Source: a bacterium HR10
GTDB lineage: Bacteria; Acidobacteriota; Blastocatellia; HR10
Length of the DNA stretch: 64,000 bases
Assembly (NCBI GenBank): GCA_002923315.1
Contig: BEHM01000014.1
Span: 5,296-69,295 of the forward strand
Reading direction: 5' to 3'
In this document: positions 35,103 to 42,615 of the stretch, in pieces
How the letters are laid out: the number at the start of each line of letters is the position of its first letter
How positions within the stretch are numbered: position 1 is the stretch's first letter
The notes under the pieces: model-generated
Databases searched by the model: none
What the model was told of the DNA's origin: nothing
What the model saw: only the letters and a program-made list of their open reading frames with translations
Made by a program: the position numbers and the translations under genes

Positions 35103-36422
35103 TCACCGTCTCCTCGACGGTTGATGAGTCCGTCGCAGCTCTTCGGCCATCGCTCGAATCTCCGTGAGCGCGCGCTTCATCTCGCTCCAGCCGTACCAGA
35201 GCGCGTAATCGGGATTCGCGTGGAACGTTCCCTGGAACGTGCGCATGCGATGCTCCAGGTGCATGACGAAGAGCTTTTGTTCGATGGGCGTCGGGGCATC
35301 GTGAAAAGCGAGGAGATCAGGGAAGGGATAGGCGTAGTGGGGTGGCTTCTTCAAGATGCCGTCCTTGTAGAGCCCGGCGACGATCCGAATGGCTTCGGCC
35401 AGAAGGCGGTCGGCTTCGCGAATCATCTGATCGCCTTTCTCCAATTCCGCGCGCGCGAAGTGGAGCGAGTGGCACTGATTGCAGACGCGGAGCATGCGCT
35501 CGCGCTCTCTCTGCCAATCCTCCGCCGTCAGGCGCGCCACATCCGCCTGTTTCACCAGATCGAAGCGAGCGGTCGGTTTGCCTTCGGGATCGAGCACGCC
35601 GAGCGCTTGCAAGATCGTCTTCTGATCGTCCGCCCACTGCTTGTCCTCCGGCAGCGGCAGGCGTACAGCCAGGAAGCCCCAGGCGGTGCGCACCTCGTGC
35701 GTGCCCTCGGGCATATGACAGGTCTGGCAGGTGGGGGCGGCTACGGTCTCCGGCAGCGTCTTGTTCTGCTTGAGCAGATATCGAACGCCGTGCTTGGAGG
35801 AGGAGTACATCTCCCATTGCGGGTGATCGAAGCCCATATGACACGTCTGACAGGCTTGCGGCTGGCGCGCTTCCTGCGCTGAGAAGAGGTGCCGCGTGTG
35901 ACAGGCATCGCAGGAAGCGACGCCGAATCCCGCGCCCTGCCGCTTCAGGTCTCGAATCTCGGCTTCCGTCTTCAATCCGATCTTGTGGCATCCGCCGCAG
36001 CCCTTCATCCCCTCGGTCAGCGCCATCGGGAGCCAATGCGTCGTCGGCATCGCCTTCATCGCGGCCCATCCGAGCGCGTGCTTGCCGCGTTTGAACTGCT
36101 CGACCTGCGTCTCATGGCAGGGCGCGCACGTCTCCGGCGTGGGGATGCGCACCTTCTCCACATCGGCCGCCGACGTGTGATCCTCACCGTGGCAGACGGC
36201 GCAATCAATCCCGTTCTGACTGTGCTTGCTCACCTGCCAGTCCGAGACGATGTTGGGCGTGACCTTCTTGTGGCATTCAATGCAGGCCGCCCCTTGCCGA
36301 GAGCGCGCCTCGGAAATCCCAGTGGGGGAATGATGGATTCCGCGGGAGACGGGAACCGTCCCGAGCACGAGCCCGAAGGCGAGCGCGTATCGCCATCGGA
36401 ACATCTGGCACCTCCTCTCCAT
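35103..36422 (-). CDS. octaheme c-type cytochrome, hydroxylamine oxidoreductase (HAO)-like family
   Basis: Signal peptide. 8 CxxCH motifs (CIECH, CAVCH, CAPCH, CGGCH, CDACH, CQTCH, CQTCH, CNQCH). HAO-like contexts CQTCHMGFDHPQWEMYSSSKHG and CNQCHSLHFA. Confidence 0.75.
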   Translation of the reverse strand: MERRCQMFRWRYALAFGLVLGTVPVSRGIHHSPTGISEARSRQGAACIECHKKVTPNIVSDWQVSKHSQNGIDCAVCHGEDHTSAADVEKVRIPTPETCAPCHETQVEQFKRGKHALGWAAMKAMPTTHWLPMALTEGMKGCGGCHKIGLKTEAEIRDLKRQGAGFGVASCDACHTRHLFSAQEARQPQACQTCHMGFDHPQWEMYSSSKHGVRYLLKQNKTLPETVAAPTCQTCHMPEGTHEVRTAWGFLAVRLPLPEDKQWADDQKTILQALGVLDPEGKPTARFDLVKQADVARLTAEDWQRERERMLRVCNQCHSLHFARAELEKGDQMIREADRLLAEAIRIVAGLYKDGILKKPPHYAYPFPDLLAFHDAPTPIEQKLFVMHLEHRMRTFQGTFHANPDYALWYGWSEMKRALTEIRAMAEELRRTHQPSRRR

Positions 36423-36464
36423 GTGATGTGCGCGCGCAATTGTACGCGGCGTTCGGGGAGATGA

Positions 36465-36731
36465 TCAAGCGGCGTCCTCGGCGCGCGCGAATCGCCGCCG
36501 CCATTCCGCGCGGAGCCGCTCGCGCACGTCGCGACGGATCTCATCCGGGAGCGGCGCAGCCGGGAGTTGATCGCACAGGCGCACGGTCGCTTCCAGCGTT
36601 CGGAGAAAAGCTCGGCAGGGTGCGCATTCTCCCAGATGGGCGCGAATATGGGCGCACACGTCCTCGGAGAGTTCTCCGTCCAGGAATTCCGAGAGGCGCT
36701 TGAAGAGTTGACGACAGGTCATCTGCCTCAC
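36465..36731 (-). CDS. zinc-binding anti-sigma factor (ZAS family)
   Basis: H-x3-C-x2-C motif in HLGECAPC, plus additional Cys residues. GTGA overlap with the stop of the sigma factor gene. Confidence 0.7.
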   Translation of the reverse strand: MRQMTCRQLFKRLSEFLDGELSEDVCAHIRAHLGECAPCRAFLRTLEATVRLCDQLPAAPLPDEIRRDVRERLRAEWRRRFARAEDAA

Positions 36732-37348
36732 TCCTGTGAATCCGGCGCGAGAGTATCGCGATGAGCTGCGAGATAAGGAGCGAGATGCTCCCGGAGAAAC
36801 AGGCGGGCTCGATGCAGACGCGTCTTGACCGCCTGCGGTGTGAGCCCGAGCGCGCGGGCCGTCTCCTCGGTCGAGAGATGCTCCACATCGCGCAGCAGAA
36901 GGACGCTGCGATATTTCGTCGGCAGCTTGGCGATGGCTTCTTCGAGCCGAGCGTTCAACTCCGCGCGCAGGAGCCGATCTTCGGGATTCGACATCACGTC
37001 CGGGATCTCGATCTTCACGTCGTGCGGGCGATCTCCAGGGAAGAACGCTTCCAGGGAGAGCTCCACGTCGGGTTCGAACTTCCCCCGGCGACGCATCTTG
37101 CGGCAGGCGTTAGCGGCGATCTGGAAGAGCCACGCCTGAAGCGAGCCTTCGCCGCGATAGGCATGAAGCGAGCGCACGAGGGCCAGGAGCGTCTCCTGCA
37201 TGACGTCACGCGCGTCCTCCGTGTGCCGGCACATCCGACGAGCGAAGTTGTAGAGTCGGCGGCCGTAGACCTCCATCAGGAGGTCGAAGGCCTCGTCTTT
37301 ACCGGCCCGCAGCTCTTCCACCAGCCGTCGTTCTTCCACGGACATCAT
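36728..37348 (-). CDS. ECF (group 4) RNA polymerase sigma factor
   Basis: Region 2 YGRRLYNFARRMCRHTEDARDVMQETLLAL and region 4 KYRSVLLLRDVEHLSTEETARALGLTPQAVKTRLHRAR. Start set at the MMSVEE methionines. The upstream part of the ORF is Arg/Pro-rich. Confidence 0.85.
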   Translation of the reverse strand: MMSVEERRLVEELRAGKDEAFDLLMEVYGRRLYNFARRMCRHTEDARDVMQETLLALVRSLHAYRGEGSLQAWLFQIAANACRKMRRRGKFEPDVELSLEAFFPGDRPHDVKIEIPDVMSNPEDRLLRAELNARLEEAIAKLPTKYRSVLLLRDVEHLSTEETARALGLTPQAVKTRLHRARLFLREHLAPYLAAHRDTLAPDSQE

Positions 37349-40231: not shown

Positions 40232-40246
40232 GAGTGCGACCTCGCT

Positions 40247-41326
40247 GTGCGCAGAACGCCTATGCGTGTTGAGACGTGGCGAAGCTGGCTCGATGAACGC
40301 TTGGGGACGGAGGCCGTGCGCGAATTCCTCCGTCGGAAGGAGGTCCCGATCCATCGGCATACGATCTGGTACTATTTCGGCGGCATGACGCTGTTCCTCT
40401 TCGTCGTGCAGGTCGTCACAGGAGCCCTCCTTCTGCTCTATTATCGGCCGAGCGCAGAAGCAGCCTTCGAGAGCGTGCAGTTCATCATGACGGAGGTCGA
40501 ATTCGGATGGTTGATCCGCTCGATCCACAGTTGGTCGGCGAACCTGATGATCGCGACGCTCTTCCTCCACATGTTCAGCGCTTACTTCATGAAGGCCTAT
40601 CGTCCGCCGCGCGAGCTGACCTGGGTGAGCGGCACGCTGTTGCTGTTTCTCGCGCTCGCCTTCGGCTTCAGTGGCTATCTGCTCCCGTGGAATAAACTCG
40701 CGTTCTTCGCGACGAAGGTGGGGACGGACATCGCCGGGGATGTGCCGGTGATCGGGCCGTTCCTGCTCCGCTTCCTGCGCGGAGGGGAGGAGGTGACCGG
40801 GGCGACGCTCACGCGCTTCTTCGGCTTCCACGTGGCCATTCTGCCCGGAGTGATGACGATCGTCCTGACGCTTCATCTCATCCTCGTGCAGAGGCACGGG
40901 ATGAGCATCCCGCCGAGCCTGGAGGGGACGCGCGTGCGGACGATGCCGTTCTTCCCCAATTTTCTCCTGCGAGACCTCATCGGGTGGGTCTTGGCCATCG
41001 GGGCGCTGGCAGCTCTGGCAGCGCTCTTCCCCTGGGGATTGGGGGAGAAGGCCGATCCCTTCGCGCCGGCGCCGGCCGGGATCAAGCCCGAGTGGTACTT
41101 CCTCTTCCTGTTCCAGACGCTGCGGCTCCTGCCGGCGCGCGTCGGGATCTTCGAAGGGGAAGTCGTGGGCGTCACACTCTTCCTGCTGGGGGGGCTCTTC
41201 TGGATGCTCGTCCCTTTCCTGGACAAGCCCACGTCGCGGGGATGGCGAGGTCGCTTCTTCACTGGCCTGGGTGTGTTCATCGTCCTCTATATCGCCGTCA
41301 TGACCATCTGGGGGTATCTCGCATGA
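40247..41326 (+). CDS. cytochrome b (fused b6 plus subunit IV-like)
   Basis: [52 protein letters not shown] (bis-His spacing), [13 protein letters not shown]. Confidence 0.9.
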
Positions 41327-42615
41327 GGGGAGAGAGGCGGGAGCGTCGTCGGATTCCGCGATCGCGGCTGTGGGGGGGCTTCGCTCTGGTGAGCCTTGTG
41401 CTCGGGGGGCTCGGCGCCACCGTCGCGCGCGCTCAGCAGGCGAAGGATTCCTGCATCGAGTGCCACGCGGCGTTGGAGGGTCCGCTCGCCGATCCCGTCG
41501 CCTTGATGCGGGAGGACATCCATCGAGCCCGCGGATTCTCCTGCGCCGATTGTCACGGCGGAGATCCGAGGAGCGATGACCCGCTGGCGGCCATGGATCC
41601 GAAGAAGGGATTCGTCGCCCGACCGCCGCATCGGGCGATCCCGGCTCTCTGCGGTCGCTGCCACAGCAATGCGGAGTTCATGAAGCGCTATAACCCCGCC
41701 CTGCGGGTGGATCAGGAGCAGGAGTACTTCACCAGCGTCCATGGGAAGCGACTGCGCGCTGGCGACACGCGCGTGGCCACGTGCACGAGCTGCCATGGCG
41801 CTCATGGGATTCGGTCCGTTCAACATCCCCTCTCGCCCGTGTATCCGCTCAACGTGGCCGAGACGTGCGCGCGCTGTCATGCCGATGCCGAATACATGAG
41901 GGAGTATCGCCTCCCTCACGATCAGTACGACCGATACCGACGGAGCGCGCACGCGCGCGCGCTCTACGACCGGCAGGACCTCTCGGCGCCGACATGCAAT
42001 GATTGTCATGGGAATCACGGCGCCGTGCCGCCCGGCATCACGTCGGTCGCGCACGTCTGCGGGCAATGTCATGTGCGCCAAGCCACGCTCTTTCGCGCGA
42101 GTCCGCACAAGGCCGCTTTCGATGCCATGGGGCTGGCCGAATGCGTGTATTGTCACGGGAATCATGACGTCCTCTCCCCGACGGATGAGATGATTGGCAC
42201 GGGGGAGAAATCCGTATGCGTCTCCTGCCATCCGCCGGGGGACGCCGGGTATCAGGCGGCCGAGCGCATGCGCGCTCTCCTGGACGACCTCTCGCGCGAG
42301 CTGGAGCGCGCGCGGGCCATCTTGGATCGCGCCGAGCGCGCGGGCATGGAGGTGAGTCGGGCGAAGTTCGAGCTGAGCGAGGCTCGTGATGCTCTCACGC
42401 ATGCCCGTGTGCTCATCCACGCCTTCTCGGTGAAGGAGGTGGAGAACGTCATTCGGCCGGGACTCGAGGTCGCGCGACGCGGGTATCACGCCGGCGAGCG
42501 GGCACTGGCCGAATTGAACTATCGGCGCAAGGGGCTTGCCGTCTCGCTCCTGTTCATCCTCTTCCTCGCCGCCCTGCTCTATCTGAAGCTTCGAGAGATC
42601 GAGGGGCCGCGGTGA
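41323..42615 (+). CDS. membrane-anchored nonaheme c-type cytochrome
   Basis: ATGA overlap with the cytochrome b stop. Signal/anchor segment. 9 CxxCH motifs (CIECH, CADCH, CGRCH, CTSCH, CARCH, CNDCH, CGQCH, CVYCH, CVSCH). Coiled-coil-like segment and a C-terminal TM helix [17 protein letters not shown]. Confidence 0.8.

Follow-up and report, generated by a model that had tools for sequence, protein, structure and literature searches.

The subject of this analysis is a gene cluster in bacterium HR10 (Acidobacteriota; Blastocatellia), within a stretch of 64,000 nucleotides that is referred to here as the window (assembly GCA_002923315.1, contig BEHM01000014.1, positions 5,296 to 69,295). Three consecutive genes on the plus strand encode a Rieske iron-sulfur protein, a cytochrome b and a cytochrome c with nine CxxCH heme-binding motifs (the nonaheme), and we hold with good confidence that the products of this trio form one complex, in which the nonaheme very likely serves as the electron-exit subunit. 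We lean towards reading it as a menaquinol-oxidising Rieske/cytochrome b complex from which electrons pass through the nonaheme to periplasmic multiheme cytochromes, possibly for the reduction of N-oxides; the choice of N-oxides as the substrate is the more tentative part of this reading.

The Rieske, cytochrome b and nonaheme trio

The region from 35103 to 42615 contains eight genes in two divergent units, one on each strand, and Pfam and NCBIfam scans confirmed every gene assignment in it, with the NCBIfam matches (ExtKL, ExtP and RsrA-like) all scoring under the model cutoffs. A preliminary description of this DNA had listed these genes and counted 22 CxxCH motifs in 7.5 kb, and the genes and the exact count were both borne out: eight motifs belong to an octaheme cytochrome c on the minus strand, and five and nine to a pentaheme cytochrome and the nonaheme on the plus strand. 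Since a scan of all six frames found just three additional motifs in the remaining ~ 56 kb of the window, this density is not due to chance.

The nonaheme gene (41323–42615) encodes 430 residues with an N-terminal signal peptide and a C-terminal transmembrane helix at residues 405–423. All nine CxxCH motifs are invariant in five orthologues of 55–82% identity, and a PDB search returned no resembling entry. In a single-sequence AlphaFold2 model, a three-helix stalk (residues 308–427) was predicted with a local confidence score (pLDDT) of 80–97, its last helix running into the membrane anchor, while the heme domain is unreliable (residues 78–305, pLDDT < 50), so that the C-terminal helices alone are credible. 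Anchored by a C-terminal helix as cytochromes c1 and f are, the nonaheme is proposed to be the equivalent subunit. Its gene shares four nucleotides (ATGA) with the end of the cytochrome b gene, an overlap that suggests translational coupling. The N-terminal ~ 220 residues of the nonaheme (41413–42078) are also weakly similar to the octaheme (35661–36320; 24% identity, E ~ 1e-6), which suggests a shared heme-packing ancestry.

The Rieske gene (39794–40231, plus strand) encodes 145 residues matching Pfam Rieske (1.8e-11) and TM_PetC (3.9e-10), with an N-terminal transmembrane anchor that contains an RR pair and a best PDB match to 8hn2 (1.2e-18). Judged from its two binding boxes, CTHLDC and CACHNGQY, the cluster-binding site is intact. 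Box II is without the Ser of high-potential Rieske proteins and retains the Tyr, which we infer to be consistent with a menaquinol-type complex. Cytochrome b (40262–41326, plus strand) is a single protein of 354 residues in which the b6 and subunit IV parts are fused (Pfam Cytochrome_B, 2.6e-54, and Cytochrom_B_C), with seven transmembrane-like segments, a PEWY motif at the quinol-oxidising (Qo) site, and the His pairs H89/H103 and H190/H205, whose spacing (13 and 14 residues between) is b6-like. YFGG replaces the CxGG motif, and the protein is therefore without a site for heme ci. Its N-terminal half is closest to PDB cytochrome b6 (1.7e-58), its full length aligns to Aquifex cytochrome b, and it matches the NCBIfam ExtP model at 216 bits (6e-64) against a cutoff of 290. 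The starts at 39794 and 40262 are probable ones, chosen by orthologue length. The operon does not encode a canonical bc1 complex, as it holds no monoheme cytochrome c1 gene and its c-type subunit has nine CxxCH motifs, nor a b6f or Firmicute b6c complex, as cytochrome b is fused rather than split and the Cys of CxGG is absent.

A pattern built from the nonaheme alignment was scanned against one genome per GTDB species, and at least 452 species-level genomes were found to hold confirmed nonaheme relatives. These span the Acidobacteriota (Blastocatellia, Terriglobia and Vicinamibacteria), Gemmatimonadota, Rokubacteria/Methylomirabilota (NC10), KSB1, Calditrichota and Binatia. Synteny was examined in 80 of these loci, with counts made by tblastn: the nonaheme directly adjoins the Rieske and cytochrome b genes in all 80 wherever flank is available, and strict synteny holds in ~ 70 of them. 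The order is Rieske, cytochrome b, nonaheme in Acidobacteriota, and nonaheme, Rieske, cytochrome b in Gemmatimonadota and Rokubacteria. When 1.8 billion cluster representatives were searched exhaustively, the nonaheme family came to 622 clusters of 50% identity (E ≤ 1e-30). In four proteins a complete cytochrome b and a nonaheme are naturally fused in one polypeptide (P0379, P0453, P0403 and P0441), and in P0338 a subunit-IV-like part is fused to the nonaheme domain; a separate relative, P0330 (760 residues), has an additional N-terminal 370 residues without a Pfam match. It is because of this conserved adjacency, together with the translational coupling, the c1/f-like topology and the gene fusions, that we take the nonaheme to be very likely the exit subunit, and the earlier proposal that a multiheme protein replaces c1 or f in this complex has held up.

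The cytochrome b of the window is more than 70% identical to hundreds of Acidobacteriota proteins, mostly from Blastocatellia. It appears to belong to the Chlorobi/NC10/Acidobacteria clade (PMC4122944), a provisional placement made from its traits and host range without a reference tree. For the Rieske proteins of this PEWY clade, a low to middle potential has been predicted (PMC4122944). The same traits and host range also agree with the published long-cytochrome-b group, in which the Chlorobi form subfamily J (PMC5600118). In the searched literature, no Rieske/cytochrome b complex with a nonaheme or other multiheme subunit is described for Acidobacteria and only clade-level phylogenies were found, an earlier mention elsewhere being possible. 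The trio is thus widespread but apparently uncharacterised. The preliminary description had presented the whole region as a candidate novel module; the trio is not rare, given its spread over hundreds of genomes, and the seven-gene set was restricted in the synteny search to one thermophilic clade of Blastocatellia.

Candidate multiheme partners and the thermophilic clade

The seven-gene neighbourhood was kept only in the window and in four other loci (L001, L092, L093 and L094), which together make up a clade of thermophilic Blastocatellia that includes 'bacterium HR08' and metagenome-assembled genomes (MAGs) of hot-spring Blastocatellia. The HR MAGs, including abundant Acidobacteria MAGs, come from ammonia-fed bioreactors at 65–70 °C in which nitrite was produced (PMC5877337). 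Gene order in the clade is FG-GAP, NHL, octaheme, a variable cassette, pentaheme, propeller, Rieske, cytochrome b, nonaheme, TrmO and ribonucleotide reductase. The cassette consists of genes for an extracytoplasmic function (ECF) sigma factor and a zinc-binding anti-sigma (ZAS) protein in the window and L094, of the same pair with a GltD-like gene in L092, of the GltD-like gene alone in L093, and of nothing in L001. The GltD-like gene (L092:5867–7279 and L093:5968–7380; absent from the window and L001) encodes a 470-residue NAD(P)H oxidoreductase with Fer4_20 and Pyr_redox_2 domains, and a homologue with 40% identity lies 1.8 kb from the octaheme in L158.

The first gene of the plus-strand operon, at 37684–38895, encodes a pentaheme lipoprotein of 403 residues in the c552/MccSep (ExtKL) superfamily, with five CxxCH motifs and a lipobox-like Cys (LTSVGC) that is kept in orthologues. 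Its best PDB relatives are Thermochromatium tepidum c552 (5ze8, 2.9e-20), MccSep (9wt9, 2.5e-8) and c554 (1bvb, 3.3e-5), and it matches the NCBIfam ExtKL model at 92 bits (2.2e-26) against a cutoff of 250. It had been called c554-like, which proved correct for the N-terminal heme domain. MccSep is a polysulfide reductase that requires a heme-ligating Cys239 and the selenocysteine Sec325 (bioRxiv 10.1101/2025.11.18.688581). When aligned with 9wt8 and 9wt9, the window protein has Ile-Leu (GVPILST) at the C239 pair and Ser (AGHAVPTGSPT) at the U325 position. Among ten pentaheme orthologues encoded beside Rieske/cytochrome b genes, the heme-ligating Cys is absent from all, being replaced by Ile or Leu, while at the Sec position nine carry Ser and L062 carries Ile. 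An MccSep-type polysulfide reductase was ruled out on these grounds, the heme-ligating Cys and the Sec/Cys being absent, and the protein is more likely a carrier, or else an enzyme whose heme 2 is ligated in another way. Pentaheme orthologues adjoin the trio in six further loci of Acidobacteriota (L033, L044, L047, L062, L068 and L075) in three arrangements, which argues for a functional partnership, and on balance the pentaheme is probably a partner of the complex. This subfamily is a natural variant of the newly described MccSep without the Cys/Sec pair, and may inform on what the scaffold does minus the selenium chemistry.

Between the pentaheme and Rieske genes lies a gene for a small secreted protein of 257 residues (39006–39779, plus strand), putatively of beta-propeller type with about four blades. 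It is lineage-specific, with only about nine close orthologues; other matches are BamB-like proteins of ~ 415 residues with at most 36% identity over part of the query and E values down to 5e-27. The AlphaFold model is all-beta with ~ 16 strands (pLDDT 78) and half the size of BamB, which is also the best Foldseek match (E 9e-5), other propellers being matched as well. Thus, of the earlier label of a PQQ/BamB-like propeller, the general resemblance to BamB stands, but the Pfam PQQ_2 match is below cutoff and the TM-scores are low (~ 0.3–0.5). The protein is perhaps a docking or assembly factor.

The octaheme cytochrome c (35103–36404, minus strand, in an open reading frame extending to 36422) has 433 residues from the ATG at 36404, a Sec-type signal and eight CxxCH motifs. 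It belongs to the hydroxylamine oxidoreductase (HAO) family (Pfam Multi-haem_cyto, 2.4e-32), and its best PDB match is Kustc0458/HAOr of Kuenenia (6h5l, 3e-35), followed by HAO of Nitrosomonas europaea. The catalytic Asp-His pair (GFDHPQWE), present without exception in 120 homologues, aligns with that of N. europaea HAO, and the C-terminal motif NPDYALWYGWSEM is invariant in the family. Tyr467 of N. europaea HAO, which forms the cross-link, aligns with Leu in the octaheme (NPDYALWYGW) and with Trp in Kustc0458. Kustc0458/HAOr converts nitrite to NO but is unable to oxidise hydroxylamine, the presence or absence of the Tyr has been deemed predictive of direction, and those Tyr-less HAOs that have been tested proved to be reductases (PMC8042395). 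Because Leu occupies the cross-link position, the octaheme probably works as a reductase, acting on nitrite, NO or hydroxylamine.

Octaheme homologues are 70–90% identical across Acidobacteriota, Aminicenantes, Nitrospiraceae, Bacteroidota and Xenobia (P0121–P0240; L089–L173), an unusually high identity for a periplasmic cytochrome, which suggests that the family is tightly constrained or has recently spread by horizontal transfer. Their commonest neighbours are ResB/CcsA cytochrome-maturation genes (12–13 of 85 loci). The earlier pairing of the octaheme with the complex needed correction: in the window it is a separate unit of opposite orientation with its own sigma-70-like promoter, and it occurs alone in most genomes. 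The claimed link between Rieske/cytochrome b genes and an HAO-like octaheme does recur, throughout the window clade and outside it. In L046, the octaheme lies immediately upstream of the Rieske gene in the same orientation, and in L049 ~ 7 kb upstream. Among 31 informative metagenome loci, defined by at least 4.5 kb of flank, the trio was found within 8 kb downstream of the octaheme in five (~ 16%). Three of these (L120, L152 and L170) are co-directional clusters of a 621-residue protein, a 726-residue multiheme, the octaheme, CcsA, a NapC/NirT-like multiheme, Rieske, cytochrome b and the nonaheme, to which L120 adds ResB and which in L152 ends with a small c554-like cytochrome; in the other two (L113 and L144), the octaheme is near Rieske/cytochrome b. 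The 621-residue protein has no Pfam match and differs from a 716–741-residue protein found near the trio elsewhere. This linkage exceeds chance expectation for a gene present once in several megabases of genome, yet it is no rule, and we put the octaheme as acceptor of the complex's electrons at somewhat below even.

Proposed electron route, precedents and alternative explanations

In the route that we lean towards, quinol would be oxidised at the Qo site, one electron passing via the Rieske cluster into a nine-heme wire and the second being recycled through the b hemes in a Q cycle, so that proton-motive force would be conserved. The nonaheme would then hand electrons to periplasmic multiheme partners that differ by lineage. 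In the thermophilic clade, the pentaheme lipoprotein would be the likely first partner, with the propeller helping in some way, and the Tyr-less octaheme could plausibly act at the end of the chain, where it would reduce nitrite, NO or hydroxylamine. Such a quinol:N-oxide oxidoreductase would amount to the hydroxylamine-ubiquinone redox module (HURM) run backwards, a 'reverse HURM', and could serve respiration or the relief of nitrosative stress. In its broadest form, the proposal is that the complex, the pentaheme and the Tyr-less octaheme make up an energy-conserving quinol:nitrite/NO/hydroxylamine chain in thermophilic Acidobacteria, the non-anammox counterpart of the anammox Rieske/cytochrome b (R/b)-HAO complexes, and that the nonaheme complex is a major form of complex III in abundant soil phyla and a hub to interchangeable periplasmic multiheme enzymes; put this broadly, we regard it as doubtful.

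The components have precedents; the preliminary description had not recognised the complex as a described one. The operons of the anammox complexes R/b-2 and R/b-3 include genes for an HAO-like octaheme and an NAD(P) oxidoreductase subunit. These complexes, from Kuenenia stuttgartiensis and discussed in PMC5600118 and PMC12954380, share with our locus a Rieske/cytochrome b core, multiheme c-type subunits and an HAO-like octaheme, and the GltD-like NAD(P)H-oxidoreductase gene in the corresponding region of L092 and L093 recalls their NAD(P) oxidoreductase subunit. They differ in that the window has no NAD(P) oxidoreductase gene, that its octaheme is divergently encoded outside the operon, that the nonaheme, pentaheme and propeller are different proteins, that its cytochrome b is of the fused type and appears to fall with Chlorobi/NC10/Acidobacteria rather than in the short subfamily G, and that the host is not an anammox bacterium. 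In Geobacter sulfurreducens, the ExtKLMNOPQS (Cbc5) cluster likewise encodes a pentaheme of the MccSep/ExtKL superfamily with Rieske, cytochrome b and large multihemes, in the order ExtKL, the multihemes ExtM and ExtN, Rieske ExtO and cytochrome b ExtP/ExtQ (PMC5877670). There, however, cytochrome b is split (ExtP and ExtQ), the partners carry 12, 10 and four hemes, rhodanese and porin genes are present, and ExtKL has a selenocysteine and a heme-ligating Cys and reduces polysulfide, where the window pentaheme has Ser and Ile/Leu.

The nap locus of Caldithrix abyssi contains a Rieske/cytochrome b pair without a monoheme c1, beside a Tyr-less epsilon-Hao to which the pair has been proposed, from the genome only, to pass quinol electrons (PMC5317091). 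That proposal includes Nap and the tetraheme NapM and no nonaheme, whereas the window is without nap and has a nonaheme and a pentaheme. Multiheme acceptors have also been proposed for early bc complexes (cited in PMC5317091). The Rieske/cytochrome b complex of green sulfur bacteria has the same fused long form, PEWY motif and GG without the Cys of CxGG (PMC5600118, PMC4122944). A further point of likeness is 8hn2, the best match of the window Rieske protein. We know of no dedicated c-type subunit in the operon of the Chlorobi complex, whereas in the trio the nonaheme is always adjacent. The HURM of ammonia oxidisers (HAO-c554-cM552) is comparable in combining an HAO-family octaheme with a neighbour that has a c554-like domain and with a membrane partner linked to quinone; the group of reductive HAOs (HAOr and epsilon-Hao) is comparable in that HAOr is the best structural match of our octaheme. 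Unlike HURM, the window octaheme is without the Tyr cross-link residue, the predicted direction is reductive, and the quinone-linked partner is a Rieske/cytochrome b complex and not a NapC/NirT-type cM552. Already known, then, are the replacement of c1/f by multihemes in anammox bacteria and Geobacter, a Rieske/cytochrome b pair beside a reductive HAO, and the cytochrome b clade, which is apparently on published trees. Undescribed in the searched literature, with an earlier mention possible, are the nonaheme as a conserved and sometimes fused partner across phyla, the pentaheme subfamily without Cys/Sec, and the gene set of the thermophilic clade.

Several observations weigh against the N-oxide route. 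No nir, nor, nap or nrf genes were found in the 64-kb window; the octaheme stands alone in 26 of the 31 informative loci and here lies on the opposite strand under its own promoter; two invariant Tyr lie two residues to either side of the cross-link position, and the lack of a cross-link rests on alignment; and the pentaheme is without the residues that define the sole characterised enzyme of its superfamily, so that its carrier role is an assumption. Many lineages that carry the trio are known as aerobes, and there the complex may simply feed terminal oxidases. In the main alternative account, the trio is a general complex III that passes electrons through the nonaheme and soluble cytochromes to terminal oxidases, or to the reaction centre in phototrophic relatives, with the octaheme an independent, stress-inducible periplasmic detoxification enzyme that is merely a neighbour. 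The spread of the trio in Pyrinomonadaceae, Gemmatimonadota and Terriglobia, the monoheme cytochrome c genes beside it in 27 loci, the mostly solitary octaheme with its own promoter on the opposite strand, and the ECF/ZAS pairs that accompany it in the window, in L092 and in L091, which is unrelated, all agree with this account. It does not explain why the octaheme and the trio are linked in no fewer than four separate lineages, above the level of a random single-copy gene, or why the pentaheme and propeller genes are inside the operon, and no oxidase genes were found nearby in any inspected locus; we give it a minority share of belief.

The nonaheme could instead form the inner-membrane terminus of a chain for extracellular electron transfer that reduces or oxidises metals, with the pentaheme as periplasmic shuttle as in the Cbc/Ext systems of Geobacter. 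The homology to ExtKL and ExtP and an MtrB_PioB gene beside the octaheme in L091 favour this, as does the setting of the trio in other Blastocatellia, where it lies in a different supercluster with a Crp-type regulator, several c7/MtrC-like multihemes, a 741-residue protein, monoheme cytochromes c and a NapC/NirT-like cytochrome. The 716–741-residue protein, without a Pfam match, follows a multiheme cytochrome and lies upstream of the trio in L006 (5167–7392), L008 (6606–8783) and 26 other loci of Blastocatellia/Pyrinomonadaceae, and from its place in these clusters it may be a conduit of the porin-cytochrome type. Extracellular transfer, which the preliminary description had also raised, therefore suits those superclusters better than the window, where it is weak because no outer-membrane conduit is seen; porin-like or surface multiheme genes were not found near the operon in the window or its clade, and we consider this explanation improbable here. 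That the pentaheme is instead an MccSep-like polysulfide or selenite reductase, making the module a quinol:polysulfide oxidoreductase, would follow from its superfamily, shared with MccSep and T. tepidum c552, and from a gene logic that matches ExtKL-ExtMNOPQ (PMC5877670; bioRxiv 10.1101/2025.11.18.688581), but the substitutions in all ten orthologues and the absence of a rhodanese or ExtI-like porin leave it very little room. Equally improbable is the opposite direction of flow, with the octaheme oxidising hydroxylamine or another periplasmic donor and electrons entering through the pentaheme as in the HAO-c554 module. The HAO-family fold, the c554-like domain and the life of relatives alongside thermophilic ammonia oxidisers (PMC5877337) are in its favour; against it, the Tyr is absent at the cross-link position, tested Tyr-less HAOs are reductases (PMC8042395), and complexes of the Rieske/cytochrome b kind work towards quinol oxidation, not quinone reduction.

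Should the nonaheme prove to be the exit subunit, then in much of the Acidobacteriota, Gemmatimonadota, Rokubacteria/NC10 and related phyla complex III would be of a type without a solved structure or, in the searched literature, biochemistry. A nine-heme wire could then account for the coupling of the quinol pool to diverse reductases in the periplasm while proton-motive force is conserved. A genuine octaheme link would connect the reduction or detoxification of N-oxides by Acidobacteria of hot springs and soil to the Q cycle, and would set the anammox R/b-HAO complexes in an evolutionary context.

Regulation, gene boundaries and neighbouring genes

The motif GGCACAGGGGTTGCA at 37620–37634 on the plus strand, of the GG-N10-GC type (GGCAC-N5-TTGCA), bears the signature of a sigma-54 (-24/-12) promoter and is predicted to drive the operon from the pentaheme to the nonaheme. 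It is the sole match in 64 kb, where 0.13 were expected, and a motif of this type is found at the same place upstream of the pentaheme in L001, L092, L093 and L094. Since the promoter lies at this position, the pentaheme start is most likely the ATG at 37684 and not the TTG at 37585. An element containing GAATTC at 37481–37522 (strand unassigned; GGGGGATTCACCC...GCGAATTCGCGC in an alignment of the window, L092, L093 and L001), ~ 100–140 bp upstream of the sigma-54 motif, is conserved in these loci and in L094, and is a candidate site for an enhancer-binding protein or activator. Sigma-54 activator genes were found near homologous clusters in seven Blastocatellia loci.

The ECF sigma factor gene (36728–37492, minus strand; Pfam Sigma70_r2/r4_2, NCBIfam sigma70-ECF 4e-32) overlaps by four nucleotides the gene for the ZAS-type anti-sigma protein (36465–36731, minus strand), which is soluble, with 88 residues, an HxxxCxxC motif (HLGECAPC) and no transmembrane segment (Pfam zf-HC2 2e-9; NCBIfam RsrA-like 1.9e-10, under cutoff). 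Judging by the 202 residues of its L092 orthologue, the ECF factor probably has its true start well downstream of 37492. Control of the complex by this pair, as proposed earlier, is unlikely because the sigma-54 promoter is conserved even where the pair is absent (L001 and L093), and ECF/ZAS was ruled out as the main control. The octaheme gene lies ~ 60 bp beyond the ZAS gene, with a sigma-70-like promoter at 36439–36468 on the minus strand (TTGATC-18-TACAAT; from a promoter scan, a consensus match only), of which TTGATC is kept in the window, L092, L093 and L094 and the -10 element in the window, L093 and L094. The recurrence of an ECF/ZAS gene after the octaheme in L091 hints at stress-linked expression.

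The tight or overlapping junctions noted in the preliminary description hold for cytochrome b and the nonaheme; the other plus-strand junctions measure 14–111 bp, and that between the pentaheme and the propeller is not tight, its 72–111 bp depending on whether the propeller gene starts at the ATG at 39006 or at 38967 (an identical database protein has 257 residues). This gap holds a perfect 39-bp tandem duplication at 38948–39025 on the plus strand (Tandem Repeats Finder: 2.0 copies, 100% match) that looks very recent; it repeats in frame the ribosome-binding site (GGAGG), the ATG and the six opening codons of the propeller gene, which produces the two possible starts. Signal peptides were assigned to the octaheme, propeller and nonaheme by hydropathy and sequence inspection. 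A terminator scan gave a number of sites not above chance.

The rest of the window contained housekeeping genes alone, with no further respiratory genes found. Directly upstream of the octaheme, at 31030–35045, are genes for large secreted proteins with FG-GAP (609-residue open reading frame) and NHL repeats (713 residues), whose position is kept in L001, L092 and L093. On the other side, the nonaheme gene converges on a gene at 42626–43549 (minus strand; 307 residues), kept in the clade, that joins the N-terminal domain of TrmO to an FmdE-like domain; 10 bp separate the stop codons. The ribonucleotide reductase of L092 (13490–16357, 955 residues) holds a LAGLIDADG intein that is missing from the window copy (43479–45260, minus strand, 593 residues). 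At 26284–27474 (minus strand), this bacterial genome encodes an S-adenosylmethionine synthetase of the archaeal type (PF01941, 1.4e-160).

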